In this document: piece after piece, positions 7,598 through 60,751 of the stretch | How positions within the stretch are numbered: the first letter of the stretch is position 1 | Layout: the number at the start of each line of letters is the position of its first letter | Assembly: GCA_040756655.1 (NCBI GenBank) | Contig: JBFLYN010000010.1 | Coordinates: 1,068 to 65,067 of the forward strand | DNA length: 64,000 nt | Source of the DNA: Bacillota bacterium | GTDB taxonomy: Bacteria > Bacillota > Sulfobacillia > UBA8153 | Direction: 5' to 3' | Position numbers and translations under genes: made by a program | The notes under the pieces: model-generated | The model's database searches: none | Seen by the model: the letters and a program-made list of their open reading frames with translations, nothing else | What the model was told of the DNA's origin: nothing

Positions 7598-9165
7598 TCC
7601 TCCCGGGCGTCCGCAAGTAGCCAGAAGGTCAGCGCAATCGAACGCTCTCTTCCCGGCGCCACGGCGGTGATCTCAACCAGCTGCAACCCCGGGTCCAGGC
7701 CTGGTGGCAGCAACCGCGACCCGCTCCACAGCTCTGGGCCCGCCACCAGTTCCAACAGCTCGCCATCAGAAAACCGGGCGAACACCCGGTTGACTATGGG
7801 CCAGGCCACGGCCTCTATTACCAGGCGCTGGCCGGGATAGCAAGTACCCGGGTAGAGCCACCCCATTAAGCCCAGGTCCCCGGCCACCTGGAACGCCAAG
7901 AGCGCGCCCCGGCTGGCTCCCGACGGAAAGTCCGCCTGTACCTTTATGGTGTAGGTGCCATCAGGCCAAGCTGGTGGCACCGGGTACGGGGCGAACCACT
8001 CGAGCCCACCACCGGTAGGCTGCCTTGCCAACTCCCCCTCAAGCTCTCCGTTGTTCCACCTGACTTGCCAAGCCGGGGTGCTGGTGTACACGTAGAGCGC
8101 CAGGTTTGAACCCGGCTGCGCCACTGCCGGCAGGACATGGCCCCATACCCGGTAATCTACGATATAGACAGGCTGCATCACCGACCAGTGAACCATGCCG
8201 TTCCGATCTGTCACCCAGCCCCGGGCGAAGTACAGACCGGACGGGAGAAGCCTACCCGACGCCTGGGTGCCATCCCACAGCACGCTGGCAGGCGGGGGAC
8301 CGGGTGTGGCCGGGATCGGGTTGAAGGTCCGGAGCACAGCGCCCCGGCTGTCGGTGATGGCCAGGTTCCAAGTGGTGACGTTGCGGTTCTTCAGGACATC
8401 CAGGTAGATCTCGACCAGATCGTCTATGCCGTCGCCGTCCGGGGAGAAAGCCGGAGGGACGACTCTCAGCAGCAAGACGCAGGACCGGTAAATGATGGTC
8501 ACGGCTTCGGCCCGGGTCATCAACTGCTGGGGGCGGAGGGTTCCGTCCTCGTAGCCCTGGACGATCCCCAGCCGGGCGGCGGCGGCCATGGCCGGCCTGG
8601 CGTGAGGCGAGACTGCGTGATGGTCGGGAAACATGTAGAGGGCCAAGGCCACCTCAGCCGGCGAGAGGGCCGATGCGTAGGGCTCAAGGCCCAGTCCCAA
8701 AATGAGCTGAGACACGGCGACCTCCCGGGTCAAGTGGTTTTCCGGTCCGAAGAACTGCTCGCCGGCAGGCAGTATTCCCCGGTGATAGGCTGCCGAGATA
8801 TGCCCGAAGGCAGGCTTGGTGGCATTGATGGTCAGACCCGTGGGCACATCCAGGTAGGGGACAGGCCATGATACCGGGTTGAGGCGAAAAGCCTTGGCCA
8901 GCAGCACGGCATATTCGGCCCTCGTCATCTGGCGGTTGGGCCAAAAGAGCGTATAGGCTCCATCCAAGAACACCCAGCCATCGGTGACCCCCTCTTCCCA
9001 CATGACCCACACGTAAGGGCGGGACCAATGGCCACCCAGGTCAGCGTACCAGGGCTCATGGGCCTGGGTGGGGCTGGAAAGCCCCAAAACCAGGCAGGTC
9101 GCCACTAACCACAACAGGGCCGACCAGCGCGCGGTGTGTTTCACGGGGCAGGCCTTCCTTTCCAT
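7573..9165 (-). CDS. secreted S-layer-homology (SLH) domain surface protein with Ig-like (FlgD/Big-like) domain
   Basis: Start reassigned to the internal Met at 9165, giving a signal peptide MERKACPVKHTARWSALLWLVATCLVLGLSSPTQA|HE; SLH motifs MTRAEYAVLLAKAF and MTRAEAVTII; PDGDGIDD calcium-binding/Ig-like motif. Confidence 0.65.
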   Translation of the reverse strand: MERKACPVKHTARWSALLWLVATCLVLGLSSPTQAHEPWYADLGGHWSRPYVWVMWEEGVTDGWVFLDGAYTLFWPNRQMTRAEYAVLLAKAFRLNPVSWPVPYLDVPTGLTINATKPAFGHISAAYHRGILPAGEQFFGPENHLTREVAVSQLILGLGLEPYASALSPAEVALALYMFPDHHAVSPHARPAMAAAARLGIVQGYEDGTLRPQQLMTRAEAVTIIYRSCVLLLRVVPPAFSPDGDGIDDLVEIYLDVLKNRNVTTWNLAITDSRGAVLRTFNPIPATPGPPPASVLWDGTQASGRLLPSGLYFARGWVTDRNGMVHWSVMQPVYIVDYRVWGHVLPAVAQPGSNLALYVYTSTPAWQVRWNNGELEGELARQPTGGGLEWFAPYPVPPAWPDGTYTIKVQADFPSGASRGALLAFQVAGDLGLMGWLYPGTCYPGQRLVIEAVAWPIVNRVFARFSDGELLELVAGPELWSGSRLLPPGLDPGLQLVEITAVAPGRERSIALTFWLLADAREDYAFVLTD

Positions 9166-9628: not shown

Positions 9629-10279
9629 GTGGCCCGACTGCGTGAGTATCGCCACCTGCTTTTGGCCCTAGGACTGGCGCTGGTTGCGGGACTCAATGTG
9701 TACAGCTATCTTGCAGACCTCCAGTTGAGTGGCCCAGTGGTGGTCACCGCGGCCAACATCGAAGCTGGGAGTGTGTTGACCCCGGCCATGGTCAGGACTA
9801 GCTACGTGCACCCCGAAGCTATCCACCCTTTGGCTTTTAGGGACCGCCAGGCCGCCGTGGGTCGGGTGGCCCTGGTGCCCATGGTGGCGGGGGAACAGGT
9901 GCTGGTAGCCAAGACTTCAGCGGATCCAACCTACCGGGGACTGGGTGCCCGCATCCCGCCTGAACTGCGAGCGGTCTACGTGCCTGCCACCGGTTTTCGG
10001 GGACTGGCTGGTGCCCTGGTCCCGGGTGAACGAGTGGACGTGGTTTACGTCAGCTCGGACTTGCGGCTGGGGGTGGCGAATGCCGTAACGGTGGTCTGGG
10101 GGGCCATGGTACTGGATGTCAGGGACGAGCGTGGCGGCAGGTATGATGGGACCAGGGACAGCTCTCCTGGGGGCCTGATCCTGCTGGTGACCCCGGTGGA
10201 AGCGGAAAAACTGGCGTTTTGCCTCAAAACTGGTTCCTTGTTTGTGAGCCTGGCGCCGCTGGCCAGTAGCCCGCCTTGA
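9629..10279 (+). CDS. cpaB: Flp pilus assembly protein CpaB/RcpC
   Basis: N-terminal TM helix, SAF-like domain, conserved C-terminal RcpC region; first gene of the tad cluster. Confidence 0.75.
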   Translation: MARLREYRHLLLALGLALVAGLNVYSYLADLQLSGPVVVTAANIEAGSVLTPAMVRTSYVHPEAIHPLAFRDRQAAVGRVALVPMVAGEQVLVAKTSADPTYRGLGARIPPELRAVYVPATGFRGLAGALVPGERVDVVYVSSDLRLGVANAVTVVWGAMVLDVRDERGGRYDGTRDSSPGGLILLVTPVEAEKLAFCLKTGSLFVSLAPLASSPP

Positions 10280-10332
10280 GCGGAGCAATAGGCCAGGCAC
10301 GCCCAGGATAAAGTTGCCCGGCGAAGGGTGGA

Positions 10333-11478
10333 ATGGCTGTGGGGCGGCTGACCCTCAAGCCTGCAAGGGACGGAGCATCATCTGCATCAGCTGTGCGCGC
10401 AGTGGCCGTGGGGGCCGGGCTCAACCTGGTCGAACTCCGGGTCGCGCACCCAGAATATGCCTTCGTTGCACACTTGGCCGACCCGGCGCTCTTGGACGCC
10501 TTCATCCTGGACTGTCGCCCGGAGGCAGTAGTCATGGGGGCGGATCTCCGGGACAGGATGGACCTCATAGCCAGGCGCCACCCGGGTGTCAAACTGGTGC
10601 AGGCAAGGACCCTGGAACCGGCGCGCCCCCAGTCCGGGCCGGAGGTCCAGTCGACCCCGTCCTGCCCGGGGGGGATACCCCTGCCCCAGCAACTGGTGGT
10701 GGTCTGGAGTCCCAAGGGAGGAGTAGGGAAGACCTTCGTGGTGGCCAACGTGGCCACGGCCGTGGCGCGCAGGAGCCGCTTTGGCGTGGCTTTGCTGGAC
10801 TTGGACCTTCACTCGGCCGACAGCGGAGTGTACCTGGATCTTCTGGAAGGGCCTGGCATCGTCGATATCTTGCCCTACCTCTCGGAACTGAGGCCCGAGC
10901 ACCTCGAAAACTACATGGTTCGCCACCCGCGGTCAGGTCTACTGGTCTTGCTGGGGCCGGCCCGACCGGAATTGGCCGATTTCGTCCGGCTAGAACACGT
11001 GCTGAAAATCGTGGAACTGGCTAGGAGACGGTTTGGTTTCGTGTTTGTGGACCTACCGCCCCACGCGGGCGAGGAGACGGTATACGAGTGCATGGAGCAG
11101 GCCAGCCGGATCCTGGTAGTGACCACCCAGGATGCAGCATCCCTGCGCCAGACCCGGCTGACGCTGGAGGTAATGCAGAAGCTGAAGATTGACGTGCCCA
11201 ATTGCGTGTGGGTCATACTCAACCGCCTTCATGCCGGTGCTCCCATACCTCCAGAGCGCGTGGAGGACTTCCTCGGTCACCCGGTGGCTGCCCGCTTGGA
11301 GGAGGACCGGCGGGCAGTAGAGCAGTCCCAGTTCGAAGGAAGACCCCTTGTGGAGACCGGCCGAAACCAGCGTCTAAGCGGGGCGCTGGACGCCCTGGCC
11401 CAGAGGCTTTGCCCCGGTGGGCCGGTCGACGGGCACGGCTGCCGGGGAGGCATAAAAGCTCTATTTCGGAAGGGTTGA
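10333..11478 (+). CDS. cpaE: Flp pilus assembly ATPase CpaE/TadZ (ParA/MinD-type, degenerate N-terminal receiver domain)
   Basis: Deviant Walker A KGGVGKT; N-terminal REC-like domain lacking a canonical phospho-acceptor context; synteny cpaB-cpaE-cpaF. Confidence 0.75.
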   Translation: MAVGRLTLKPARDGASSASAVRAVAVGAGLNLVELRVAHPEYAFVAHLADPALLDAFILDCRPEAVVMGADLRDRMDLIARRHPGVKLVQARTLEPARPQSGPEVQSTPSCPGGIPLPQQLVVVWSPKGGVGKTFVVANVATAVARRSRFGVALLDLDLHSADSGVYLDLLEGPGIVDILPYLSELRPEHLENYMVRHPRSGLLVLLGPARPELADFVRLEHVLKIVELARRRFGFVFVDLPPHAGEETVYECMEQASRILVVTTQDAASLRQTRLTLEVMQKLKIDVPNCVWVILNRLHAGAPIPPERVEDFLGHPVAARLEEDRRAVEQSQFEGRPLVETGRNQRLSGALDALAQRLCPGGPVDGHGCRGGIKALFRKG

Positions 11479-11484
11479 GGCCAC

Positions 11485-12783
11485 TTGTCATTGCTAGAGA
11501 GGCTCGAAAAGCACCGGGCCGGACACGCGGCGGCCGGTCCAGCATCGGTCGAGGAGATCGTGAGCCGGGTGCGGGACCGAGTGCTGGAATCTCATGCCAG
11601 TACCGTGTTCAAAGCCCGCGGCGAAGCGGGTAAGCGTGCGCAGCTTTTGACGCTGGTGACCCAGCTCCTGGTCAGCGACGGCTTGAGCCTGCCCAGGCTA
11701 TCGCGAGAGGCCCTCGCTGAGCATGTAGTCCAGGAACTGGTGGGTTACGGTCCCATCGACTCCCTGGTTTCCGATGGCCAGGTCAGTGAGATCATGGTCA
11801 ACGGTCCGGGCGAGGTGTACATAGAGCGTGATGGCCGGCTATTACGGACGGCAGTGGCCTTCGACAGTGAAGAACAGCTGACCGACCTGATAGTGCGCAT
11901 GGTGGCACCCCTGGGCCGCCGCGTCGACCGGTCTGCTCCGTACGTTGACGCCCGCCTCCCGGATGGTTCCAGGATTAACGCGGTGCTGCCCCCACTGTCC
12001 CTTAACGGGCCGGTGCTCACCATCAGGAAGTTCCCGCAACGGCTGACCAATTTGGCCGACTTGGTCCACCTGGGGTCGCTCAGCGTTGAGATGGCAGCAT
12101 TTCTCGAAAAAATGGTGCACTGCCGGGCCAACATGGTTATGTCCGGTGGTACGTCTTCCGGGAAGACCACTACCCTCAACGTCATATGCCTTCTGGTACC
12201 GTCGGACGAGCGTCTCATAACCATTGAGGATTCTGCCGAACTCCGGCTGGTGGGCCGTCACGTGGTCAGTCTCGAGACCCGCCCGGCCAACATGGAGGGA
12301 AAAGGGGCGGTAGAACTCAGGGACCTGGTGCGAAATGCCCTGCGCATGCGTCCCGACCGGTTGGTGATCGGTGAAGTACGGGGACCCGAGGCCTTTGACC
12401 TGGTCCAGAGCATGAATACCGGGCATCCTGGCTCGTTGACCACGGTCCATGCCAACAGTTGCCGCGATGCCCTCAAGCGTCTAGAGGGCATGGTGCTGAT
12501 GGCCGGGAGCGGCTTGCCGCTGGCAGTGGTCCGGCAGCATCTGGCCGCCGCCATTGATGTGATCGTCCATCACAGCCGGGTACCGGGAGGTGGACGCAGG
12601 GTTACCGAAATCGCCGTGATGGAAAGGTCTGATGACGGGGACCTGAGCCTTACGTGTGTCTACCGGGATCTGACATGGGGAAGGTCGTCCCGGCCTGAGT
12701 TTGTGGCTGACAGTGCGCTTCCCCCATGGATGCATGGGTGGATGGAGGGAAGGGATGCCGGGACCGGTACCGGTCCGCCATGA
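11485..12783 (+). CDS. cpaF: Tad secretion ATPase CpaF/TadA (type II/IV secretion NTPase)
   Basis: Walker A GGTSSGKTT, Walker B and His-box regions of the VirB11/CpaF family. Confidence 0.85.
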   Translation: MSLLERLEKHRAGHAAAGPASVEEIVSRVRDRVLESHASTVFKARGEAGKRAQLLTLVTQLLVSDGLSLPRLSREALAEHVVQELVGYGPIDSLVSDGQVSEIMVNGPGEVYIERDGRLLRTAVAFDSEEQLTDLIVRMVAPLGRRVDRSAPYVDARLPDGSRINAVLPPLSLNGPVLTIRKFPQRLTNLADLVHLGSLSVEMAAFLEKMVHCRANMVMSGGTSSGKTTTLNVICLLVPSDERLITIEDSAELRLVGRHVVSLETRPANMEGKGAVELRDLVRNALRMRPDRLVIGEVRGPEAFDLVQSMNTGHPGSLTTVHANSCRDALKRLEGMVLMAGSGLPLAVVRQHLAAAIDVIVHHSRVPGGGRRVTEIAVMERSDDGDLSLTCVYRDLTWGRSSRPEFVADSALPPWMHGWMEGRDAGTGTGPP

Positions 12784-13619
12784 GACTCCTGCTGATTGCC
12801 TCCTGTGTATCGGGGGTGGTGCTGGTTATTGCCGCGGCAACCTTGCCGCTTTCCCTGAGATGGCGGGGCCGCCTTCTGCGTCTAAGGGGCGGTGAGGCTG
12901 GCAGGAGCCGGACGGGCACCCATACGCAGGACAGGGCAAAGCTGGCGCTGGCCATGGGCGGGGGCTTAGTCGGACTGTGGGTGACCAACCATCCCTGGGG
13001 ACTGCCGGTGGGCGCCGGAACCGGGTACGTGCTGTCCCGGCTCCGGATGACCGCCAGGAACCGCAAGGCCCGCGGGCATTGCCGACAGCAGGCGGAATAC
13101 CTGTGCCTTTCAGTCGCCAACAGCCTGCGGGCGGGCCAGAGTCTCCCCGAAGCCCTGGCTACCGCTGCCCACCGTGTCGGGCCGCCACTGGCGCCCGCCG
13201 TGCTAGCGGCCATTGGCCGTCACCAGGCTGGCGTCCCACTGCTTGACGCGTTTGCCGAGCTAGCCTCCCGGCCTACAGGGTCGGGATTGGGTCACGTGGC
13301 CGAAGTCCTGTCCATCCACCAGGAAGCTGGTGGAGAGTTACCGCTGCTGCTCACCCTGGCTGCCGGGACTCTCCGTGAACGCCGGCTACTTCAAAAGGAA
13401 GTCGAAGCCCGTACGGTGGAAGCGCGGCTAAGCGCCCGCATTTTGGCGGGCATCCCGGTACTGGTTACCTTCTATCTGGCGAAATGGCAGCCAGCGAGCC
13501 TTGTTCCGCTGGTTATGTACCCTGCAGGAAGGGCAGCCCTGGCACTAGCCATTGGCTTGTGGTTGACGGGTCTGGTGGTTACATCGTACTTGGTGGGAGG
13601 GGAGGAGAGCTGGGAGTGA
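12780..13619 (+). CDS. tadB: Tad inner-membrane platform protein TadB (T2SSF domain)
   Basis: ATGA overlap with cpaF stop; polytopic membrane protein with GspF-like domain; position in cluster. Confidence 0.7.
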   Translation: MRLLLIASCVSGVVLVIAAATLPLSLRWRGRLLRLRGGEAGRSRTGTHTQDRAKLALAMGGGLVGLWVTNHPWGLPVGAGTGYVLSRLRMTARNRKARGHCRQQAEYLCLSVANSLRAGQSLPEALATAAHRVGPPLAPAVLAAIGRHQAGVPLLDAFAELASRPTGSGLGHVAEVLSIHQEAGGELPLLLTLAAGTLRERRLLQKEVEARTVEARLSARILAGIPVLVTFYLAKWQPASLVPLVMYPAGRAALALAIGLWLTGLVVTSYLVGGEESWE

Positions 13620-14452
13620 AAGCCGGCCTGGCCGCCGCTTGCACCGGTCTGGCCATCTTCGTGATGGTGGACGGGGTTTTTGCCAGGAAGTACCGGCGCT
13701 GGACTGCGCTTGTGGGCACTCGCGCCGACTCCTGCGGAAGGCTCCTCGAGGTCCTGGCCGACCTACCGTACCCGGCTGGGTGTGGTGATTTGCCGGGCAG
13801 GTTGCGCCTGGCAGGAAGGCCGTGTTTCACGAAAGCTGCGTGGGTCAGGCGCCGGCTGGGTTCACTGGCCCTGGGAGGATCGATACTGCTTGTGCTGTTT
13901 TTGGTCTGCCCGGCCCTGCTGCCTGCTCCCGCAGCCTTTTGCGTTGCCGCCATGTCTTACTGGTGGCCCGACCTGTGGCTGGCCAGGGAGTGCCGCGTGC
14001 GTCGGCGGAAGGTCCAAACCGCTTTTCCGGGTTTTCTTGATCTCATGGCCACGTGCGCCAATGCTGGCCACAGCCTTTACACGTCTCTGCTGACCGTGGC
14101 TCCCCGCGTGTCCGGACCTCTGGGAGAGATCTTCAGGGAGGTGTGTCAGCAACTGGAGTCCGGCCGGAGGTTGTGGGCGGCACTGGAGTATGCCCGGGGC
14201 AACGCCGGGCTTGCAGAAGTAGATACCTTTGTCACCGCCATGGCGGAGGCCGACGCCCTGGGGGCGCCCATAGCAGAGACCCTGAGAAACCTGGCGTCGC
14301 TGGCCCGTACCCAGCGCCGGTACGCCCTGGAGGCCGCGGCTGCCACCCTGCCTCTTAAACTCAGTATATGCACTATTGTCTTCTTCTTGCCCCCGGTCTT
14401 CGTGCTCCTAGTAGTACCTAACTTGATGGCCTTTCTGATCAGTGCCTGGTAG
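13616..14452 (+). CDS. tadC: Tad inner-membrane platform protein TadC (T2SSF domain)
   Basis: GTGA overlap with tadB stop preceded by GGGAGGGGAGGAG RBS; GspF-like membrane protein. Confidence 0.7.
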   Translation: MKAGLAAACTGLAIFVMVDGVFARKYRRWTALVGTRADSCGRLLEVLADLPYPAGCGDLPGRLRLAGRPCFTKAAWVRRRLGSLALGGSILLVLFLVCPALLPAPAAFCVAAMSYWWPDLWLARECRVRRRKVQTAFPGFLDLMATCANAGHSLYTSLLTVAPRVSGPLGEIFREVCQQLESGRRLWAALEYARGNAGLAEVDTFVTAMAEADALGAPIAETLRNLASLARTQRRYALEAAAATLPLKLSICTIVFFLPPVFVLLVVPNLMAFLISAW

Positions 14453-14467
14453 AAAGGAGAAAGACTT

Positions 14468-14644
14468 ATGATGCTGTTTTTCAAGGTGAAGCTCGGTTCG
14501 CGCAGGGGAGCAACCACAGCTGAGTATGCGCTGATCCTTGCCTTGGTCGTAGTAGTTCTCATTACCACCTTGAATAGCTTGGGCTCTGTGCTCAATGAGA
14601 AGCTGAGGTTGATCATCGACCAGCTCACCCAGGTCGGGGGTTAG
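14468..14644 (+). CDS. flp: Flp/Fap family type IVb prepilin (58 aa), absent from the ORF track because it is under 60 aa
   Basis: RBS GAAAGGAGAAAG 6 nt upstream of ATG; Flp motif G/ATTAEYALILALVVVV (prepilin-peptidase site G|ATTAEY plus hydrophobic helix); follows tadC and precedes tadE. Confidence 0.7.
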   Translation: MMLFFKVKLGSRRGATTAEYALILALVVVVLITTLNSLGSVLNEKLRLIIDQLTQVGG

Positions 14645-14647
14645 GAG

Positions 14648-15058
14648 TTGACCGAACTGGGAAGAGCTGGTGATCGCCGTGGCACCGTGGCAGTGGAATT
14701 CGCCCTGGTTTCCACGTTGCTGCTGTTCCTTCTGTTCATCATCATAGACCTGGGGTTAGCTCTCCACGTACGCCTGGTGCTGGGTGCTGCAGCCCGCGAG
14801 GGTGCCCGGCAGGCGGCGGTGGACGGCGGTGCATCCGCCCGTGCCATGCAGCGAGTGCTGGACTACTTGTATATGGCGGGTATTGGGCCCGAGGACGCGG
14901 AGATCAGTTTCATGCCCGCGGCCGCCTCCTACGGCACACCCGTGACGGTTACTGTCAGCTATCACTACCGGTTCACTGTGCCTTTAGTCCAGGCGGTGCT
15001 GGGACCGCTGGTACACCTTCAAGGCACGGCCGTAACCCGTAGTGAAAGGCTACGATGA
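14648..15058 (+). CDS. tadE: TadE-like pseudopilin
   Basis: N-terminal TadE motif GTVAVEFALVSTLLLFLLFIIIDLG. Confidence 0.65.
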   Translation: MTELGRAGDRRGTVAVEFALVSTLLLFLLFIIIDLGLALHVRLVLGAAAREGARQAAVDGGASARAMQRVLDYLYMAGIGPEDAEISFMPAAASYGTPVTVTVSYHYRFTVPLVQAVLGPLVHLQGTAVTRSERLR

Positions 15059-15537
15059 GTAGCCACAGACGCGGGGCTGTGGCCGCGATGGTCATACTGC
15101 TCCTACCAGCGTTCACCGCATTGCTGGCGCTGGTGGCGGATCTTGGGTTAGTGCTCCACGCCAGGGCGGCGCTCAGGGCATCCGCTGACCTCGCGGCCCT
15201 GGCCGGAGTACAGGAACTGGACCTGGAAGCCCTGGCTCAAGGGGAGCCCAGGTTACTGCCGGACGTGGCGATGACAGTGGCAAACACCTACGCCCGGGCC
15301 AATATCAGCAAGCAACTGGGGAATGCGGCAGGGCAGGTTCTCCAGGTGAAGGTGGATGTGTACAACGCCAGTGCCCGTGAGCCCTTGGTTCACGACCGCA
15401 CTGGACGGTTGCTGGAGGCACCCACCGTGTGTGTGCGACTGACCCTGCCCCTGCGGTTGGTCTTGGCCACCCGCATCATGGGGCGGTCTGAGTACCGCGT
15501 GGAAGCCCATGCCGATGCGGCAGTTGTCCGGAGGTAG
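15055..15537 (+). CDS. TadG/TadE-like pseudopilin (Tad_N domain)
   Basis: ATGA overlap with the preceding gene; N-terminal RGAVAAMVILLLPAFTALLALVADLG hydrophobic pilin-like segment. Confidence 0.5.
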   Translation: MSSHRRGAVAAMVILLLPAFTALLALVADLGLVLHARAALRASADLAALAGVQELDLEALAQGEPRLLPDVAMTVANTYARANISKQLGNAAGQVLQVKVDVYNASAREPLVHDRTGRLLEAPTVCVRLTLPLRLVLATRIMGRSEYRVEAHADAAVVRR

Positions 15538-17398: not shown

Positions 17399-17587
17399 GG
17401 ATCACCTGCTTTCTCCGGCGCCTGACATTTTATCAACCTGTTGCTCTTTAAAGATTATACACCTCGACTGTACATGGGTAAAGGCGGGCGCGCCACAGCA
17501 TGGAAAGAACTTTTTCTGGCGCCGGGGGAGGAATTGCGGTTCGCGGTCAAGAATAAAATCAACGACCAAGCAACTTAATACATCGGA

Positions 17588-17790
17588 TGAGGATGACGGG
17601 AGAGACCCGGTTCGTCGGGCGCCGAAGGAGCAAGGGAATACCGAAACTCTCAGGTACCAACACTGTCATCTGACGGATCTCTGGAGAGTCCTGGCTTCAC
17701 AGGACACCAAAGGGGTAACTCGCCTGGGAATCAGCGGGAAATCTCTCAGGTAAAAGGACAGGGGAGAGCAGTGCCGGCTTGCCGGCTTCT
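17588..17790 (+). promoter_or_regulatory. tandem glycine riboswitch (two aptamers) plus expression-platform hairpin, leader of the gcv operon
   Basis: Aptamer 1 GGGAGAGACC...GCCGAAGGAGCAA...CTCAGGTACC..ACAG; aptamer 2 CTCTGGAGAGTCC...CACCAAAGGGGTAA...CTCAGGTAAAAGGACAGG (near-exact consensus); hairpin gccggcttgccggc then ttctc; immediately upstream of gcvT. Confidence 0.8.
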
Positions 17791-17865
17791 CACTCTGTCC
17801 TTATCATTTCCCAGGCCGGCGCGAACTCTACTAGCAGTGGCCTGGTCAAGAAGGAGGTGAAAAGA

Positions 17866-18972
17866 GTGGACAATCTAAAGCGAACCCCGCTCTACGCCAC
17901 GCACCTCAAGTACGGCGGAAAGATCATCGACTTCGCTGGCTGGGCGCTTCCGGTCCAGTTTACCAGCATCATCGAAGAACATCACGCGGTGCGCAAGACT
18001 GCCGGCCTGTTTGATGTGTCCGACATGGGAGAGCTTACGGTGGAGGGGCCAGAGAGCCTGGCGCTACTGCAACTGGCGCTCACCAACGACATCAGCCAGG
18101 GTTACACGGGTAAGGTGATCTATTCCCCCATGTGTAACGAGCAGGGCGGAGTGGTGGACGATCTCCTGGTATACTGCCTGGGGCCCCAGCGCTACCTGCT
18201 GGTGATCAACGCGGGTAACATTGAGAAAGACTTCAACTGGGTAGCGGGCCTGGCCAAACGTTTCGGCCAAGTGACCGTCAAGAACGTGTCGTCAGAAGTG
18301 GCGGAGGTGGCACTGCAGGGACCCAATTCCCAGCCCATCCTCGCCAAGCTCACCGCTTTCGACTTGGCGGGCATTCGGTACTATCACGCGGCTGAGAATA
18401 TCGATGTAGGCGGTGTCACCTGCATGGTTTCGCGCACCGGGTATACCGGAGAGGATGGTTTCGAACTGTACTGCGAACCGGACCGGGCCGCCGAGCTTTG
18501 GGACCTGATTATGGAAGCTGGCGACGAATTCGGACTGGTGCCCGCGGGACTTGGTTGCCGTGACACCCTGCGGTTCGAGGCCTCCATGCCCCTGTACGGC
18601 CAAGAACTCGACGACCAACGCGGCCCGCTAGAGGCCGGGCTGGGCAAGTTCGTGGCTTTTGGCAAGGGCGACTTCGTCGGACGCGAGGCCTTACTGCGCC
18701 AGCGTGAACAAGGTCCATCCCTACGCTTGGTAGGTTTCGAGATGTTGGGCAGGGGAATCCCGCGCACCGGCTATCCCTTACATGCCGGCGGGCAGAGGAC
18801 AGGCTACGTCACCACTGGTTCCTACGCTCCTAGCCTTGACAAGAACCTGGGACTCGGGTTCGTGGCACCCGATTACCGCAAGCCGGGCACAGAGATCGAA
18901 GTGGAGATACGCGGCAGGAACATACCGGCACGCGTGGTCAGGACCCCGTTCTACCGAAGGGAGGGTAAGTAA
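17866..18972 (+). CDS. gcvT: glycine cleavage system T protein (aminomethyltransferase)
   Basis: Start GTG at 17866 after AAGGAGGTGA RBS; conserved N-terminus KRTPLYATHLKYGGKIIDFAGWALPVQF. Confidence 0.9.
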   Translation: MDNLKRTPLYATHLKYGGKIIDFAGWALPVQFTSIIEEHHAVRKTAGLFDVSDMGELTVEGPESLALLQLALTNDISQGYTGKVIYSPMCNEQGGVVDDLLVYCLGPQRYLLVINAGNIEKDFNWVAGLAKRFGQVTVKNVSSEVAEVALQGPNSQPILAKLTAFDLAGIRYYHAAENIDVGGVTCMVSRTGYTGEDGFELYCEPDRAAELWDLIMEAGDEFGLVPAGLGCRDTLRFEASMPLYGQELDDQRGPLEAGLGKFVAFGKGDFVGREALLRQREQGPSLRLVGFEMLGRGIPRTGYPLHAGGQRTGYVTTGSYAPSLDKNLGLGFVAPDYRKPGTEIEVEIRGRNIPARVVRTPFYRREGK

Positions 18973-19362
18973 ATGACGTATCCGATGGAGTTCAAGTACA
19001 CCAAGGATCACGAGTACATCAATGTCCAGGGCAGCGAAGCCTACGTGGGCTTGTCCAACTACGCTCAGGACCAGCTGGGTGACATCGTGTTTGTGGAATT
19101 GCCCGAGGTGGGCCGGGTCATCAAGCAGGGTGAAGTGTTTGGAGTGGTGGAGTCGGTCAAGGCCGTCTCCGATTGCTACGCTCCAGCTGGCGGCACTGTG
19201 GTGCGGGTGAACGAACGACTCTTGGACGAACCTGATCTGATCAACAAGGATCCCCACGGCGAGGGCTGGATGATGGTGATCGAGCTGGCAGACCCGTCCG
19301 AACTAGACGAGCTCATGGATATCAATGCCTACCGGAGACTGCTGGAAGAGGTTGGTCACTGA
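18973..19362 (+). CDS. gcvH: glycine cleavage system H protein (lipoyl carrier)
   Basis: Lipoyl-lysine motif ESVKAVSD; 129 aa. Confidence 0.9.
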   Translation: MTYPMEFKYTKDHEYINVQGSEAYVGLSNYAQDQLGDIVFVELPEVGRVIKQGEVFGVVESVKAVSDCYAPAGGTVVRVNERLLDEPDLINKDPHGEGWMMVIELADPSELDELMDINAYRRLLEEVGH

Positions 19363-20705
19363 TGAACTTCATCCCCAACACCGAACGGGACCGCCAGCGG
19401 ATGCTGGAGGCCATTGGGATCAGGTCAATCGAGGAGCTGTTTGAGGACATTCCCGATATCGTGCGGCTAAAGCGGGAACTTGACCTCCCCCGGGCCATGA
19501 GCGAATCCGAGCTTTACTCGCACATGGTCGGCCTAGCCGGCGCCAACAGCAGCTTCCATGAGTATGTGTCATTCCTGGGTGCGGGAGCCTATGACCACTA
19601 CATCCCGGCCGTGGTCCAGCATGTGCTGGGCCGGTCCGAATTCTACACTGCCTACACCCCGTACCAGCCTGAAGTAAGCCAGGCAGTGCTCCAGTCCATC
19701 TATGAGTACCAGACCATGATCTGCGAACTTACCGGCATGGATGTGTCCAACGCTTCCATGTACGACGGAGCCACGGCCATGGCCGAGGCAGCCATGATCG
19801 CCTGCGGCCAGACCCGCCGCAAGAAGATCGTGGTGGCCCGTTCGGTGCACCCCGAGTACCGGGCGGTTATCCATACCTACGCCCGGGGCGCTGACCTGGA
19901 AGTGGTCGAGGTTGACTTCCAGAAAGACAGCGGTCAGGTATGCGGTTCAGGGCTGGCCGGCCAAGTGCCAGGAGCCGGCTGCGTGCTGGTGCAGCAGCCC
20001 AACTTCTTCGGTTGCATCGAGGATGTCCAGAGCATAGGGAATCTGGCTCGCCAGCATGGAGCGCTATTCGTGGTGGCCGTGGACCCGCTGTCCCTGGGGG
20101 TCCTGCGCCCGCCTGCCAGCTATGGCGCTGACATGGTGGTAGGCGAAGGGCAGCCGCTGGGAGTCCCCATGTCGTTTGGCGGGCCATACCTGGGCTTCTT
20201 TGCCGTGACCGAGAAACTGATGAGGCGCATCCCCGGCCGGGTGGTAGGCGCCACCGTGGATGTGAGGGGCCAGCGCGGCTTCGTGCTTACCCTGCAGACC
20301 CGGGAGCAGCACATCCGGAGAGAGAAGGCCACGTCCAACATCTGCTCCAACGAAGCGCTCTGCGCGCTGGCCGCCACGGTATACCTGTCGTGGCTGGGCA
20401 AGGAGGGTATCCAGGACTTGGCGCGCCACTGCCTGCAGAAAGCCGCCTATGCCAGGGACCGCATCACTTCTCTGGACGGGTACCAGCGGGCTTTCAGTGC
20501 TCCCCACTTCAAGGAATTCGCCGTGCGCTGCCAGGTGGGAACTGGCCGCGTCCTGGACGAACTACTCAAGAAAAAGATCATCGCCGGGTACCCCTTGGGC
20601 CGGGACTACCCGGAGCTGGACGATGTCCTGCTCATCTCCGTGACTGAGAAGCGCAGTCGCGGCCAGATCGACGCACTGGTGAGCGGATTGGAGGGATTGG
20701 CATGA
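19362..20705 (+). CDS. gcvPA: glycine dehydrogenase (decarboxylating) subunit 1
   Basis: Family similarity; split P-protein arrangement typical of Firmicutes. Confidence 0.9.
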
Positions 20706-22159
20706 AAAGGCTAGAGCCTCTGATCTTCGAGCTGAGCTCCCCGGGGCGGCGCGCATATTCCCTTCCCGCGCTGGACGTTCCAGAGCAGGACTTGGGTCAG
20801 TTGCTGCCCGCCGGTGAACTCCGACAGGTACCGGCAGAACTGCCTGAAGTCAGCGAAGTTGACGTGGTGCGCCACTTCACACGGCTTTCCCAGCTGAACC
20901 ACGGGGTTGACATCGGGTTTTACCCGCTGGGTTCGTGCACCATGAAGTATAACCCTAAGATCAACGAGGTCGTGGCCGGGCTGCCGGGCTTTGCCAACCT
21001 GCACCCCTATGTTCCTGAATCCATGGCCCAGGGCGCGCTACAGCTGCTGTACGAGATCGAACAGTACTTGTGCGAAATCGGTGGTATGGCCCGGGCCACG
21101 TTGCAGCCCGCGGCCGGAGCCCACGGCGAACTCACGGGCCTGCTTATCATCAAGGCCTACCACCAGGCCCGGGGAGAGCGCCGGACCAAGGTCATCATCC
21201 CTGACTCGGCCCACGGCACCAACCCGGCATCAGCAGTGATGGTGGGCATGGAGACGGTGGAGGTCAAATCGGACCACCGGGGCGGTGTGGACGTGGAGGT
21301 CCTCAGGCGAGTCATGGACGAGTCTGTGTCCTGCCTCATGCTCACCAACCCCAACACGTTGGGCCTGTTTGATGAGAACATCCATGTCATCGCTGACATA
21401 GTGCACCAAAAGGGCGGGCTCCTTTACTACGACGGGGCTAACGCCAACGCCATCATGGGCTATGCGCGGCCGGGCGACACCGGCTTCGACGTGGTACACT
21501 TCAACCTGCACAAGACCTTCGCCACGCCCCACGGTGGTGGCGGCCCGGGCTCCGGTCCCGTGGGGGTGCGGGAGGACCTGGTGAAGTACCTACCGGTACC
21601 ACTGGTGGATTTTGACGGCCAGCGCTACCTCCTAAACTACGATCTTCCTGATACCATCGGCCGGGTGAAGCTGTACTACGGGAATTTCAGCACTATCATC
21701 AAGGCTTATGCCTATATCCGGGCCATGGGTCCAGACGGGCTCAAGAAGGTCAGCGAAAACGCCGTGCTCAACGCCAACTACCTCATGCGGAAACTCCTAG
21801 AGCATTACGACCTACCCTACGACCGGCACTGCAAACACGAGTTCGTGGTAAAGCCCGGGCGGATCAAGGAGAAAACCGGCGTCAGGACGCTGGACATCTC
21901 CAAGCGCCTCCTGGACTACGGGGTCCATCCTCCCACCAACTACTTCCCGCTCATCGTGGAGGAAGCCCTGATGATCGAACCCACGGAGACCGAGTCCATC
22001 GAGACCCTGGACTACTTTGTGGAAACCATGAACCAGATCGCCCGCGAAGCCTACGCCGATCCCGAGCGGGTGAAGACTGCCCCCCACACCACCGTGGTCG
22101 GCCGCCTGGACGAGGCCACCGCGGCGCGGCGCCCTGTGGTCCGATGGAAGAAAGAATAG
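20702..22159 (+). CDS. gcvPB: glycine dehydrogenase (decarboxylating) subunit 2 (PLP-binding)
   Basis: PLP region [16 protein letters not shown]; ATGA overlap with gcvPA. Confidence 0.9.
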
Positions 22160-23082
22160 AGAAACTGGAAAGCGGGTCCGGCCACGGCCGGACCCGCCCC
22201 CAGTCAGGGGTGGAAGAGAGAATCGACGAACTGCTCGACCGGGCCTGGACGGAGCGCATGGCTCACCACAGTCCCACCCTGGTGGCGGCGGTCCCGAACC
22301 GCACGTTGCCGGTCACGGTCACGGGTGCCGGTTGCGGGCTGGCGTGCCTCCACTGCCGGGGTCATTATCTCAGGACCATGCTCCCCAAGGAACGGGCCAT
22401 CGCAACCTACCACGAACGGGGCTTCACCAGCTGCTTGATCAGCGGCGGGTGTGACGTCCAAGGACAGGTGCCCCTGGGGTCCCACCTGGGGTTTCTACAG
22501 GAGATGAAACGGAACGGCGCCCGGCTCAACCTACATGTGGGGTTGGCCGGCCCGGACACGGCGCGCCAGCTGGCCGGGTTGGCCGACAGCATTTCCCTGG
22601 ATTTCGTGGGCGATGACGAGACAGTCCGAGAGGTCTACGGCCTGGACCGCCCGGCCGGGGATTACGTGGAAACCTACCGCGAGTTTGCCAAGTTTCTCCC
22701 GGTATACCCCCACGTTTGCATCGGGCTTCGCGGCGGCAAGATCAGCGGCGAATACCGGGCGCTAGAGCAACTCGCCGGCCTACAAGCACCGGTAGCGGTG
22801 TTCCTGGTGCTCATACCCACCCGGGGCACGCCCTACGAGCACGTATCTCCTCCCAGCCTGGAGGAAGTCTCCCGGGTCCTGGCCACGGCCCGGGTGATGA
22901 TGCCCCGTGCCAGCCTGTACCTGGGGTGCATGAGACCCGGGGGCACCTACCGGAAGGAACTGGACCAGTTGGCGGTAAGGTCCGGGGTACAGAAGATCGT
23001 ACAGCCTGCCCGTGCTGCCCTGGAGCTAGCCACCCGGCTGGGGTTGGCTGTCCACCGGCAGGAGGAGTGTTGTGTGCTATGA
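22144..23082 (+). CDS. radical SAM protein, LipS-like (candidate lipoyl synthase component)
   Basis: CX3CX2C motif CGLACLHC; immediately downstream of gcvPB and upstream of a second radical SAM gene and an LplA-family ligase. Confidence 0.5.
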
Positions 23083-24065
23083 ACAGGGTAATCCGGCTTT
23101 CGGCCGGCACGGCTGCTGTGGCTGGCCTGGCCCGGGCGCGCCTGGACGAGGTGCCCACTACCGCCTACGTCCTGGCCGGCGACAAATGCACCGCAAGCTG
23201 TGGGTTCTGCCCCCAGTCCCGGTGCGCAGAGAGTCGCCCCGGCTTTCTGTCCCGGGTGAGCTGGCCTGCGTTCACAGTGGATCAGGCGGTGCCGGCACTG
23301 GCCCAGGCTGCCGCTGCCGGGCGGTTTCGCCGGGTGTGCGTCCAGCTGGTGCAGGGTGGGGATGGGGCCAGTGCCTGCTTGGAACTGATCAGGGCGCTGC
23401 GTGCCCGGGTCGAAGTACCCGTGGCCGTGTCCGCAGCACCGCTAAGTGAGGACTGTGTTCTGGCTTGGCTGGAGGCTGGAGCCGACCGGGTGGGGCTACC
23501 CCTGGATGCAGCGTGCGAGCGGGTATATGCCCGGGTCAAACAAGCTTCGTGGTCCCGGGCGCTGGCAGTGGTGGAGGCGGCCGCCGGGAGATTTCCCGGG
23601 CAAGTCAGCACCCACCTCATAGTGGGGCTGGGAGAGACCGAGGAAGAGGCCGTGGGCTTTTTAGGACACATGGCGGGTTACGGGGTGACAGTGGGGTTGT
23701 TCGCCTTCACGCCGGTACGGGGGACACCCCTGGAGGACCAGTCCCCGCCGCCGGTGGATGTGTACCGGCGCGTGCAAGTGGCCCGCTTTCTCCTGGACAG
23801 GAAAGTGCCCGGGGTCAAGTTTGCGTTTTTGGAAGGACGCCTGGCCGGTTGGGGTCTTTCCGGCTCAGTTCTCAAGCAGTTATTAGCGGATGGCGAGGCC
23901 TTCAGGACCACCGGATGTGCAGACTGCAACCGGCCGTACTATAACGAGCGGCCCGGGGGGGTAGTGTTCAACTATCCCCGGCCCTTGCGGCCCGTGGAAA
24001 TACGCGCGTGCATCCGGGCGGCACTGGGCCAGGATGCCCGGGAGGGGGCTGACATTTGCTGCTAA
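23079..24065 (+). CDS. radical SAM protein, LipS-like (second component)
   Basis: Internal ATG at 23079 forming an ATGA overlap with the previous gene; CX3CX2C motif CTASCGFC; additional C-terminal Cys cluster CADCNRPYY...CIRAAL. Confidence 0.5.
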   Translation: MNRVIRLSAGTAAVAGLARARLDEVPTTAYVLAGDKCTASCGFCPQSRCAESRPGFLSRVSWPAFTVDQAVPALAQAAAAGRFRRVCVQLVQGGDGASACLELIRALRARVEVPVAVSAAPLSEDCVLAWLEAGADRVGLPLDAACERVYARVKQASWSRALAVVEAAAGRFPGQVSTHLIVGLGETEEEAVGFLGHMAGYGVTVGLFAFTPVRGTPLEDQSPPPVDVYRRVQVARFLLDRKVPGVKFAFLEGRLAGWGLSGSVLKQLLADGEAFRTTGCADCNRPYYNERPGGVVFNYPRPLRPVEIRACIRAALGQDAREGADICC

Positions 24066-24862
24066 AGGGAAGCCGGTGGCGGCTTATGGACACCGGGCCG
24101 GCTGGCGGGGCCTGGAACATGGCCGTGGATGAAGCCCTCCTGGCCGCACAGTCACCCGGCGCCAGCCCGGTGCTGAGGTTTTACAGCTGGGTGCCTCCCG
24201 CAGTGTCGCTGGGATATTTCCAGGTACCTGGGAAGGAAATCGATTTTGGTGGTCTTGGGAAAATCGGGGCCACGTGGGTGCGGCGTGCCACCGGCGGGCG
24301 GGCGGTACTACACGATGATGAAGTGACCTACGCTGTGGTCATCCGGGAGGAGCTCTTGCCGGGCACGGTCATCGAGACCTACCGGGTGTTGAGCGAGGCG
24401 CTTGTGGCCGGGCTGCGAGCCCTGGGCGTCCCGGCCACGGTGATACCCCACAGCGAAGTGGACCGCCGGGGCGGTGCTTCCGCCGCCTGCTTTGATGCCC
24501 CGTCGTGGTACGAGGTGGTATCTGACGGGAGAAAACTGGTGGGCTCGGCCCAGGTCCGGAGAAACGGGGCCATATTGCAGCACGGGTCCATCCCCCTGAG
24601 TTTCGACGTGGACCGGCTGCTGAGCACCCTGCGCGTGGGGTCGGGGCCGTCCCGGGAGCGGGTAGCCCGGGTTCTAAGAGCCAAAGCTGCCGGCCTTGCC
24701 GAGGTACTGGGACAACGTCCTTCACCCGAGGCAGTGCGCGAAGCCATCGTGTCAGGGTTCGAGTCGGTGCTGGGGGTGACCTTTGTGGCTTCCGGGCTTA
24801 CCCCGCAGGAAAATGAGGCTGCCAGGCTGCTGGCGGCGGGCAAATACTCGCAGGAGGTATGA
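24056..24862 (+). CDS. lipoate-protein ligase / octanoyltransferase family protein (LplA/LipM-like catalytic domain only)
   Basis: BPL_LplA_LipB fold: WRLMDTG...AWNMAVDEALL...catalytic K in RKLVGSAQVRRNGAILQHGS; about 268 aa with no C-terminal accessory domain. Confidence 0.7.
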   Translation: MLLKGSRWRLMDTGPAGGAWNMAVDEALLAAQSPGASPVLRFYSWVPPAVSLGYFQVPGKEIDFGGLGKIGATWVRRATGGRAVLHDDEVTYAVVIREELLPGTVIETYRVLSEALVAGLRALGVPATVIPHSEVDRRGGASAACFDAPSWYEVVSDGRKLVGSAQVRRNGAILQHGSIPLSFDVDRLLSTLRVGSGPSRERVARVLRAKAAGLAEVLGQRPSPEAVREAIVSGFESVLGVTFVASGLTPQENEAARLLAAGKYSQEV

Positions 24863-24865
24863 AGT

Positions 24866-26263
24866 ATGTACCATGTGGTTATCATCGGCAGCGGCCCCGG
24901 CGGGTACGTAGCTGCCCTCAAGGCCGCCCAGCTGGGAGCCAAGGTGGCAGTGGTGGAATCCGCCCGGCTGGGAGGGACCTGCCTGAACCGGGGATGTATC
25001 CCCACCAAGGCACTGGTGAAGTCGGCCACCGCCTATGTAGAGGCCCAGCACCTGGCCAATTTCGGGGTGAGAACCGGTCCAGTGGAACTGGACCTTCCCG
25101 GGGTCATGGCCCACAAGGAGCGCACGGTGGCCCAGCTGGTGGGCGGTGTGGAGAAGCTCTTGTCAGCTGCGGGAGTCAGCCTGTTCAGGGGCCGGGGACA
25201 GATCGTGGCGCCGGGCCGGGTGCGGGTGACGGGTGCTGACGGCGAACAGGAACTAGAGACCAAGAACATCATCATCGCCACCGGCTCCAAGCCCCAGCTG
25301 CCGCCTGTGGACCAGGAGAGTCTTGAGCACACCATCTCCAGCGACGATGCGCTGGCCCTGCCCCGGGTGCCTGAGAGCATGATCGTCATCGGCGGCGGGG
25401 TGCTGGGCGTGGAGTTTGCGTGCATCTGGAACGCCTTCGGGACGCGCGTGGAAATGGTGAAGCGCTCACCTCTGATCCTGCCCCCGGTCGACGAGGAGAT
25501 CTCGCGCCGGCTCATGACTCTTCTTCGCAGAAAGCAAGTCAAGGTCAACAGCGGGATCTACATCAAGGAGATCGTGGATACCGGCGGGGGGAAGCGTCTA
25601 TCCGGGGACACCAAGGACGGCGGGAAGGTTAGCTTCGAGGCGGAACTAGTGCTGGTGGCCATGGGCCGGGTGCCAGACTTTGGCGGTCTGGACCTGGATG
25701 CCCTGGGCATTGCCCATGACAAAAACGGCATCAAGACCGATGGGCACATGCAGACCAACGTGCCCGGCATTTACGCCATCGGCGACGTGGTAGGCCGTAC
25801 CTACCTGGCCCCGGTGGCATCGGCCGAGGGGATTGTAGCCGTAGAGCACTTGATGGGACACGCCCGGGAGATGGACTACTCGGTCATCCCCAACTGCGTG
25901 TTTTCCATACCCGAAGTGGCGGGCGTTGGACTCAAAGAGTCGGAAGCCCGGGAGAAAGGCTACGATGTCAAAGTGTCCAAGTTCCCATTTTCGGCCAATG
26001 GAAGAGCAGTGGCCATGGGCGAGACCGAGGGCCTGGTAAAGCTGGTCGCCGACGACGCCACCGGAAGGATCCTTGGGATGCACATTATGGGACCCCACGC
26101 CGACGACCTGATCCACGAAGGAGCTATGGCGCTGGCCATGGGAGCCACCGGCAGGCAAGTGGCCGACATGATCCATGCCCATCCTACCTTGTGTGAGACC
26201 ATCATGGAGGCTGCCCATGGCCTGGTGGGGCAACCCTTGCACCTGGCCAGGATGGGGCGCTGA
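24866..26263 (+). CDS. lpdA: dihydrolipoyl dehydrogenase (E3 / L-protein of glycine cleavage)
   Basis: FAD motif GSGPGGYVAALKAAQLG, redox disulfide GGTCLNRGCIPTK, NAD motif, C-terminal HAHPT. Confidence 0.85.
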   Translation: MYHVVIIGSGPGGYVAALKAAQLGAKVAVVESARLGGTCLNRGCIPTKALVKSATAYVEAQHLANFGVRTGPVELDLPGVMAHKERTVAQLVGGVEKLLSAAGVSLFRGRGQIVAPGRVRVTGADGEQELETKNIIIATGSKPQLPPVDQESLEHTISSDDALALPRVPESMIVIGGGVLGVEFACIWNAFGTRVEMVKRSPLILPPVDEEISRRLMTLLRRKQVKVNSGIYIKEIVDTGGGKRLSGDTKDGGKVSFEAELVLVAMGRVPDFGGLDLDALGIAHDKNGIKTDGHMQTNVPGIYAIGDVVGRTYLAPVASAEGIVAVEHLMGHAREMDYSVIPNCVFSIPEVAGVGLKESEAREKGYDVKVSKFPFSANGRAVAMGETEGLVKLVADDATGRILGMHIMGPHADDLIHEGAMALAMGATGRQVADMIHAHPTLCETIMEAAHGLVGQPLHLARMGR

Positions 26264-26544
26264 ACAGGGACCTTAACTAGCCGTCGACACCAGGGGACCC
26301 CTGGCGACAGGACGCTCCCGTGCCCGGAGGACTCTAGTCTAAAGGCTAAAGGCCGCGTATGGACCATCCGGTCCCCCGGTTTGGTAGACCGGTACCTTTG
26401 AGAGGCGAAGCGGGCCGGCCGGAGTTGCCGCCGGACGGTGGCGAAGACTGGCTACGGATCGGGGCTGTCCCTACGGTGAGCGACATTTTTCACTTCCCGC
26501 TCCTGGGTATAATGGATGCATGGACTCCAAACCTGGGAGAGGGG

Positions 26545-26805
26545 ATGATGATCATCGGCTGGCGGCGGCTTGATACGAGCAAAGAAGGTACCACCGATTC
26601 CAGCGGGTACAGTGTTGTGGTGGTACAAGCGCGGAACGATTTACGCAAGGATAAGCTGGTGGTCGCCATGGAAGAGGGGGGCCGGGTGCGCATACCCCAT
26701 GAGATGTACGAGCGGATCGGGAGCGGGCCGGGTGGCTCTGTCCAGATGCGCAGGTGCGGGAGTACCGTGGTGATAGAGCGCGTACCGGACCGGGCAGTTA
26801 GGTAA
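26545..26805 (+). CDS. AbrB/MazE/SpoVT-family swapped-hairpin DNA-binding protein (domain at C-terminus)
   Basis: Own promoter (TGGGTATAAT at 26505-26513) and RBS GGGAGAGGGG; C-terminal GGRVRIPHEMYERIGSGPGGSVQMRRCGSTVVIERV matches the AbrB-type looped-hinge. Confidence 0.45.
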   Translation: MMIIGWRRLDTSKEGTTDSSGYSVVVVQARNDLRKDKLVVAMEEGGRVRIPHEMYERIGSGPGGSVQMRRCGSTVVIERVPDRAVR

Positions 26806-43671: not shown

Positions 43672-43888
43672 GACCAACCTGCAGCGACTGGAGGAGGTTG
43701 TCAAGCTGCTGGAAAGCGGAGACCTTTCGCTAGAACGCGCGTTAACCCTGTTCCAGGAAGGCATCACGCTGGCCCGGACCCTCAGCGGGCAGTTAGATGC
43801 AGCCGAAGCCCGCATCGACCAGGCGCTCAAGGGGGCCGGCGGGGAACCAGTGCTGGTCCCGGTGGTCCAGCGGAGCGACGGCGAGTGA
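43625..43888 (+). CDS. xseB: exodeoxyribonuclease VII small subunit
   Basis: Internal ATG at 43625; [32 protein letters not shown] signature. Confidence 0.85.
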   Translation: MEPQTQALTQEKPSFETNLQRLEEVVKLLESGDLSLERALTLFQEGITLARTLSGQLDAAEARIDQALKGAGGEPVLVPVVQRSDGE

Positions 43889-53441: not shown

Positions 53442-53523
53442 TTTGCTCTACCACCAAGAAGGATAGGTTCTCTTGTACAGCGAATGATTTTGGGCACATC
53501 TGGAAACGAAAGGGGCAATCTCG

Positions 53524-54276: not shown

Positions 54277-54338
54277 GCCAGTTTTTCTGCATAGCTGCAA
54301 GAAGGCCCCTCCATACTACGTGATGGAGGGGAATTGCT

Positions 54339-59464: not shown

Positions 59465-59602
59465 TCCCTGCAATTGGTTGCCTGCAAGAAGATGCAGAGC
59501 CGCGCAGAAACGTGCAGGCGAGGCGAGGGCACCTCCCGGAGGGAGGCGCCCTTTTTCGCGCCGGTGCTGGTGGACTTCCAAGCCAGGACCGCAGGAAAGT
59601 CC

Positions 59603-59618: not shown

Positions 59619-59661
59619 ACAGGCAGAGTGAGTAGCAAGGCGAGGAGGAGGTGGGCCGGTT

Positions 59662-60741: not shown

Positions 60742-60751
60742 ACTGCTGACC

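Follow-up and report, generated by a model that had tools for sequence, protein, structure and literature searches.

The lipoyl cofactor can be completed by a two-protein lipoyl synthase, LipS1/LipS2, which was reportedly discovered in Thermococcus kodakarensis by Jin in 2020. The archaeal enzymes have been characterised biochemically; with an H-protein-type peptide as substrate, LipS2 acts at C8 before LipS1 acts at C6 (Neti 2022, PMC9585515). LipS1/LipS2 have been shown to work in bacteria as well, and LipM is reported to co-occur with LipS1/S2, with transferase-based octanoylation inferred (Tanabe 2023, PMC10332631). In the S4 Table of the same paper, LipS1 and LipS2 occur together in 106 Firmicutes species, of which 42 also have LipA and 41 are classed as 'LipM & no Lpl'. 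Here we describe a locus of this kind in a 64-kb stretch of a contig (JBFLYN010000010.1) from the metagenome-assembled genome of an uncultured Bacillota bacterium. The whole stretch is called the window, and all coordinates are window positions. The plus strand between 17.5 and 26.3 kb very probably carries one compact eight-gene operon, gcvT-gcvH-gcvPA-gcvPB-lipS1-lipS2-lipM-lpdA, behind a tandem glycine riboswitch. Its products would be the glycine cleavage system and the enzymes needed to make the lipoyl arm on the H protein of that system, and glycine would switch the operon on. This degree of confidence applies to the explanation as a whole, mechanism included. What our analysis shows is family membership, conservation of catalytic residues, operon architecture and its conservation; the chemistry, the step order, the octanoyl donor and the riboswitch response are proposed by analogy with enzyme work on T. 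kodakarensis and Bacillus subtilis.

The radical-SAM pair and its putative octanoyltransferase partner

Sequence comparison identifies the products of the two radical S-adenosylmethionine (SAM) genes behind gcvPB as the two members of the already described LipS1/LipS2 synthase. A preliminary description of this DNA had proposed this identity, and it had suggested checking both proteins with hidden Markov models and against T. kodakarensis; both comparisons agree with it. The first protein passes the LipS1 equivalog model NF053742 over model positions 4-268 of 268, and the second passes the LipS2 equivalog NF053743 over positions 1-292 of 292 (scores in Table 1). In reciprocal matches, LipS1 is 38% identical to T. 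kodakarensis TK2109 (E 1e-57) and LipS2 is 34% identical to TK2248 (E 3e-60). The cross-comparisons are insignificant, LipS1 reaching only E 3e-4 with TK2248. The two archaeal sequences come from the supplementary material of Neti 2022 (PMC9585515), with reading errors mended against the printed DNA, and the rebuilt T. kodakarensis LipS1 has its cysteines at exactly the published positions.

Both proteins carry the CX3CX2C motif, CGLACLHC at residues 64-71 of LipS1 and CTASCGFC at residues 37-44 of LipS2. A six-frame search found this motif in no other called gene of the window; the two further matches, at 41409 (-) and 51557 (+), are in reading frames that are antisense to called genes or shifted against them. 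Mutagenesis showed that T. kodakarensis LipS1 requires C230, C276, C277 and H159, and LipS2 requires C85, C276 and C279 (Neti 2022, PMC9585515). All of these residues are kept in the window proteins, where they align with C262, C309, C310 and H190 of LipS1 and with C87, C280 and C283 of LipS2. Thus LipS1 is predicted to hold a radical-SAM cluster on C64/C68/C71 and an auxiliary cluster on C262, C309, C310 and H190, and LipS2 a radical-SAM cluster on C37/C41/C44 and an auxiliary cluster on C87, C280 and C283. The CX3CX2C cysteines and auxiliary ligands of LipS1 are invariant in a 38-sequence alignment, and the corresponding cysteines and ligands of LipS2 are invariant in a five-sequence alignment that includes TK2248.

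The gene that follows lipS2 had been described as a single-domain member of the ligase/octanoyltransferase family, and this part of the description stands: its 268-aa product has a single LplA-B_cat domain (Pfam, 2.7e-35) and no LplB or C-terminal domain. The partner of the synthase had been called a ligase, and here the designation has to be changed, as the protein looks like an octanoyltransferase of the LipM type, not like an ATP-dependent ligase. Its identity to B. subtilis LipM is 43% (E 3e-77), in an alignment that spans residues 3-267, its full length. The reference was found by a database query with a B. subtilis LipM sequence, which retrieved entries annotated as 'octanoyltransferase LipM [Bacillus subtilis]' (99-100% identity), one of which was used. 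C145 and K160 of the window protein align with C150 and K165 of B. subtilis LipM, which we take to be the acyl-thioester cysteine and its partner lysine (Christensen & Cronan 2010; UniProt). One preprint names C150 only for LipL. In Tanabe 2023 (PMC10332631), the criterion for LipM is the score of HAMAP MF_02118. Since the partner is a LipM-type octanoyltransferase, the route of lipoylation is probably de novo from octanoyl-acyl carrier protein (octanoyl-ACP), not of the sLpl(AB) salvage type.

The start of this gene is most likely TTG 24056, which is preceded by GGGAGGGGG and overlaps lipS2 by 10 nt; the NCBI annotation likewise has a 268-aa product with the same start. An alternative start at ATG 24086 was rejected in favour of TTG 24056, because a conserved N-terminal WRL motif lies upstream of that ATG.

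The presumptive target is encoded in the same operon. The predicted lipoyl-lysine of GcvH is Lys63 in the sequence ESVKAVSD, one residue off ESVKAASD, the LipS substrate peptide of Neti 2022 (PMC9585515). In the proposed pathway, glycine binding by the tandem riboswitch would lead to read-through into the operon. LipM would then move an octanoyl group from octanoyl-ACP, via a thioester on Cys145, onto Lys63 of GcvH without ATP. LipS2 would add sulfur onto C8 with SAM and a sacrificial auxiliary [4Fe-4S] cluster, and LipS1 would subsequently add sulfur onto C6, again with SAM and auxiliary-cluster sulfur, to complete lipoyl-GcvH. LpdA would reoxidise the lipoyl cofactor during catalysis. Because it passes the lipoamide dehydrogenase equivalog, LpdA is assigned as the L protein and not as the LipT reductase found in clusters of sulfur oxidisers.

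Operon architecture, regulation and genomic context

The features of the locus are collected in Table 1. From gcvT to lpdA, the intergenic spacings are 0, -1, -4, -16, -4, -10 and +3 nt. The two radical-SAM genes had been called translationally coupled and placed directly after gcvPB, which agrees with the coordinates: lipS1 starts 16 nt inside gcvPB, whose stop is at 22159, and lipS1 and lipS2 meet in an ATGA overlap. The single-domain ligase-family gene and a dihydrolipoyl dehydrogenase gene follow, in the order given before. The names gcvT, gcvPA and gcvPB are based on position, upstream of gcvH in the case of gcvT, and on Pfam matches of the same-position genes in related loci (GCV_T for gcvT, GDC-P for gcvPA, GDC-P and GcvP2_C for gcvPB). 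For gcvT, the start GTG 17866 was picked because of the Shine-Dalgarno (SD) sequence GAAGGAGGTG upstream of it and the N-terminus VDNLKRTPLY; a start at 17779 was rejected.

Table 1. Features of the gcv-lip operon and its leader in the window
Feature	Position	Strand	Evidence
Glycine riboswitch aptamer 1	17587..17675	+	Rfam RF00504, 66.3 bits
Glycine riboswitch aptamer 2	17674..17771	+	Rfam RF00504, 44.8 bits, stretch searched alone
Predicted expression-platform hairpin	17754..17802	+	Fold of 17745-17870: -51.6 kcal/mol, z -2.4
gcvT, aminomethyltransferase, 368 aa	17866..18972	+	Open reading frame (ORF); GTG start
gcvH, H protein	18973..19362	+	TIGR00527, 161.8 bits (cut-off 115.85)
gcvPA, glycine dehydrogenase subunit 1	19362..20705	+	ORF
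gcvPB, glycine dehydrogenase subunit 2	20702..22159	+	ORF
lipS1, 312 aa	22144..23082	+	NF053742 LipS1, 279.5 bits (cut-off 230)
Perfect 11-bp GC-rich hairpin, codons 10-18 of lipS1	22172..22197	+	Fold -33.4 kcal/mol, z -4.8
lipS2, 328 aa	23079..24065	+	NF053743 LipS2, 328.9 bits (cut-off 270)
Predicted lipM-type octanoyltransferase, 268 aa from TTG 24056	24056..24862	+	43% identity to B. subtilis LipM
lpdA, dihydrolipoyl dehydrogenase (L protein)	24866..26263	+	TIGR01350, 529.1 bits (cut-off 408.8)

A tandem glycine riboswitch had been noted ahead of the operon, and the covariance searches agree. Two adjacent RF00504 aptamers lie upstream of gcvT, and the riboswitch is regarded as tandem because both exceed the gathering score of 32. 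The two-aptamer model RF03166 scores 92 bits over 17583-17765, under its gathering score of 110. By RNA fold prediction, the 5' arm of a terminator-like hairpin (17754-17802) overlaps aptamer 2 at its 3' end; the hairpin has a weak U tract and looks like the expression platform of the riboswitch.

A second hairpin, within lipS1 (22172-22197), begins 13 nt past the gcvPB stop, and no other such hairpin was found in the window. Its segment is missing in the closest relative, the UBA994 locus. The hairpin is flanked by the peptides MEERIEKL and VEERIDEL, which resemble a short duplication, and the LipS1 residues it encodes (11-20) have predicted local distance difference test (pLDDT) values under 50 and are predicted to be disordered. 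A possible role is in RNA stability or attenuation, as an element that divides the gcv genes from the maturation genes. In contrast to the other seven genes of the operon, lipS1 has no recognisable SD sequence in the stretch examined (22124-22146), and its start inside gcvPB suggests weak, coupled translation. A start at GTG 22210, past the hairpin, was rejected, as the only usable start of the UBA994 homologue is the overlapping ATG.

At the distal end, no terminator was detected behind lpdA by a simple scan, and shuffled sequences fold at least as well as 26255-26365. A 148-aa ORF without a Pfam match lies 95 nt past lpdA (26359-26805, +); it is also called as a gene on an identical Logan contig, and no such ORF was observed behind lpdA in the remaining related loci.

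The order gcvT-H-PA-PB-lipS1-lipS2-lipM recurs in related loci whose proteins are 41-57% identical to those of the window. It is complete in four loci (L016, L021, L022 and L023) and matched by two partial ones (L018 and UBA994), which keep the same order on contigs that end upstream of the operon. Most of the related loci have lpdA beside lipM. In L016 and L022, lpdA and glyA come directly after lipM; in L023, lpdA follows two serine dehydratase genes, and in L021 there is no lpdA nearby. A glycine riboswitch precedes gcvT in each of the four related loci with upstream sequence, with a second aptamer detected in three. A reference-genome scan with a single protein returned one close relative (UBA994, the closest reference genome) and distant, irrelevant matches in Polyangiaceae. 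Meanwhile, Moorella thermoacetica has gcv genes and a lipM-like gene and no lipS genes, and Kyrpidia tusciae has a gcvH-lipM pair; therefore, the linkage of lipM and gcvH is the older and wider feature. In the Moorella locus, two ORFs (102 and 85 aa, at 7420-7963 of that locus) without Pfam matches lie between gcvPB and the lipM-like gene, in the place of lipS1 and lipS2. They were considered as LipS remnants and rejected, as they have no similarity to LipS1 or LipS2.

Several other features of the window were recorded. Upstream of the operon, a Tad/Flp-type pilus cluster (9629-15537, +) comprises genes for RcpC/CpaB, a ParA-like ATPase, a T2SSE ATPase, T2SSF, TadE and a TadG-like protein. A gene pair at 39275-41505 (+), followed by folD, encodes an FAD/NAD-binding subunit with a DHODB-type Fe-S domain and a GltD-like Fer4_20/Pyr_redox_2 subunit, and resembles an NfnAB-type ferredoxin:NADP oxidoreductase. 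At 44815-45436 (+; 436 bits) there is an OLE (ornate large extremophilic) RNA of full length, with a polyprenyl synthetase gene on one side and a small membrane-protein ORF followed by dxs on the other (43885-44721 and 45470-47941), surroundings that resemble the usual ispA-OLE-oapA-dxs neighbourhood. Together with the sporulation genes (spoIIIA, spoIVB), the OLE RNA is consistent with an anaerobic, spore-forming member of the Bacillota. In the interval from spoIVB to the following gene, a crude ORF pick gave a minus-strand ORF (53356-54339) with no Pfam match and a low GC content at third codon positions; the real gene there is probably on the plus strand, as spo0A would be expected after spoIVB. 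Finally, the genes at 57743-63820 (+) encode a sigma-54 activator with PAS domains, a Leu/Val-type dehydrogenase, a butyrate-kinase-like protein, a phosphotransbutyrylase and a second dehydrogenase, in this order, which resembles the start of the B. subtilis bkd operon. The genes for a lipoyl-dependent branched-chain 2-oxoacid dehydrogenase may come just past the window end; the enzyme would need a route (LipL?) from lipoyl-GcvH.

Alternative explanations

That the radical-SAM pair is unrelated to lipoate and falls into a different family of BioB-like proteins (biotin synthase, HydE or PylB, for example) is hardly conceivable. This idea draws on structure: for the AlphaFold2 model of LipS1 (pLDDT 93.5, confident except for about 25 N-terminal residues), the nearest solved folds found by Foldseek are biotin synthases and HydE (template modelling score ~0.67), with LipA much further away. 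However, biotin synthase is the nearest solved fold because the searched copy of the PDB holds no LipS structure, and LipS proteins are described as BioB-like in the literature. Pfam gives a weak BATS match in LipS1, which would also suit this alternative, and a generic Radical_SAM domain in LipS2. Against it, the LipS1 and LipS2 models are passed, whereas the BioB model TIGR00433 scores 21.8 and 47.7 bits on the two proteins against a cut-off of 225, and the PylB and HmdB models stay far under theirs. Grouping with biotin synthase or pyruvate-formate-lyase activases, which the preliminary description had named as evidence against LipS1/LipS2, is thus not seen at the family level. In addition, the auxiliary-ligand pattern is the LipS-specific one, and in the loci compared both genes always lie between gcvPB and the lipM-type gene. 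The family-model scores by themselves effectively refute this alternative. The LipM-like protein, on the other hand, might be an ATP-dependent LplA-type catalytic subunit whose LplB is encoded elsewhere, and might attach free octanoate or lipoate as in archaeal LplAB or the bacterial sLpl(AB) LipS1/S2 pathway. We consider this improbable. The closest solved structure is indeed subunit 1 of Thermoplasma acidophilum LplA, the catalytic part of a two-part ligase (E 5.7e-26), and there are weak matches to NCBIfam LplA_large and LplAB; but B. subtilis LipM is far closer, and the NCBIfam/TIGR ligase models give only 88.3, 78.8 and 57.5 bits against cut-offs of 480, 550 and 280. Moreover, C145 and K160 lie within a block, CFDAPSWYE...GRK, that is unchanged in all 16 aligned sequences, which range from the window's clade to Bacillus, and that T. 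acidophilum LplA lacks, and an LplB-like gene is absent from the operon and from six related loci. The ATP-independent activity of the protein is inferred, because LipM and LplA catalytic subunits have interconverted several times (Tanabe 2023, PMC10332631).

The identity of the genes is not touched by a further alternative, which concerns only their essentiality: a canonical lipA could be present elsewhere in the genome, and LipS1/S2 of the operon could serve as a glycine-induced accessory for GcvH. This is a possibility of some substance, though less likely than not. The data here are 64 kb of a genome, and in the S4 Table of Tanabe 2023 (PMC10332631), 42 of the 106 Firmicutes species with both LipS proteins have LipA in addition, against 64 that lack it. 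The earlier remark that no classical LipA is apparent holds within the window. None of its radical-SAM ORFs, the two LipS proteins included, carries the LipA motifs CX4CX5C (N-terminal in LipA) or RSSY (C-terminal), and lipA, lipB, lipL, lplB and E2 are not among its Pfam-scanned genes. A tblastn search of the window with E. coli LipA (an approximate sequence) matched lipS2 alone, and weakly, and the product of lipS2 scores 28.5 and 27.2 bits with the LipA models TIGR00510 and PRK05481, whose cut-offs are 310 and 203. At the other extreme, the genome could lack lipA altogether, with LipM, LipS2 and LipS1 as its sole lipoyl-building enzymes, transcribed solely from the glycine-riboswitch gcv operon. 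In that case glycine would gate the lipoyl supply of every lipoyl enzyme, including the probable branched-chain 2-oxoacid dehydrogenase beyond the window, the supply would pass through GcvH, and the hairpin between gcvPB and lipS1 would set the ratio of structural to maturation enzymes. This far-reaching version seems rather unlikely.

For the glycine-switched, self-lipoylating operon favoured here, several points count on the other side. The enzyme functions in the window's clade are assigned by comparison of sequences. LipM is closely related to the catalytic subunit of two-part ligases, and function has changed repeatedly between the two, so that octanoyl transfer over ligation is not proven, and a separate LplB, LipA or LipL may be encoded outside the window. 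In the riboswitch platform, the U tract of the terminator is poor. In addition, the expression level of lipS1 is uncertain, because there is no visible SD sequence and a strong hairpin lies 28 nt into the coding sequence.

Comparison with known systems

The operon and riboswitch tie a two-protein lipoyl synthase to one substrate, an ordinary H protein. This makes the locus a clean bacterial case, in which LipS1/LipS2 specificity and the cooperation of LipM with the LipS proteins could conveniently be tested. The finding leaves knowledge of lipoate biosynthesis unchanged. The NCBI record labels LipS1 of the window just 'radical SAM protein', and most listed homologues have generic names or none; the annotation of LipS1 in the window's clade can thus be improved.

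Compared with T. kodakarensis LipS1/LipS2, the synthase of the window likewise consists of two separate radical-SAM proteins with CX3CX2C motifs and the same ligands, contained in the C-terminal ECC and GCMRP of LipS1 and in the R-x-C-x-Q and GCxxCNRPYYNERP of LipS2. In contrast to the archaeal system, the locus is bacterial, the lipS genes are adjacent, overlapping and inside a gcv operon, the predicted partner is a LipM-type transferase instead of the LplA-LplB ligase, and LipS1 is longer by about 40 residues at its N-terminus. The sulfur-oxidiser sLpl(AB)-LipS1/S2 pathway (Tanabe 2023, PMC10332631) has the same synthase pair beside an acyl-loading enzyme; the window differs in having no sLpl(AB), lipT, LbpA or sHdr genes, in the ordinary GcvH as target and in the LipM-like loader. 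With the B. subtilis LipM/LipA/LipL relay, the window shares a GcvH-centred LipM-type transferase and the linkage of gcvH with lipM-like genes, as in Kyrpidia and Moorella. However, no lipL was seen in the window, and sulfur insertion would be performed by LipS2 and LipS1, not by LipA.

The closest parallel is the co-occurrence of LipM with LipS1/S2 recorded in Tanabe 2023 (PMC10332631), which involves exactly the same enzymes in the same phylum. The set is not new in the phylum, because 41 Firmicutes species with LipM and no Lpl are counted there; it is already known and covered by curated NCBI models, and the window provides a clear but ordinary new example of it. The embedding in a gcv operon behind a glycine riboswitch does not appear to be described in the main text of that paper, where glycine cleavage is mentioned in the introduction only. 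Therefore, what the locus adds is a modest regulatory and synteny observation, namely the conserved placement of the lipoylation genes between gcvPB and lpdA under a glycine riboswitch.

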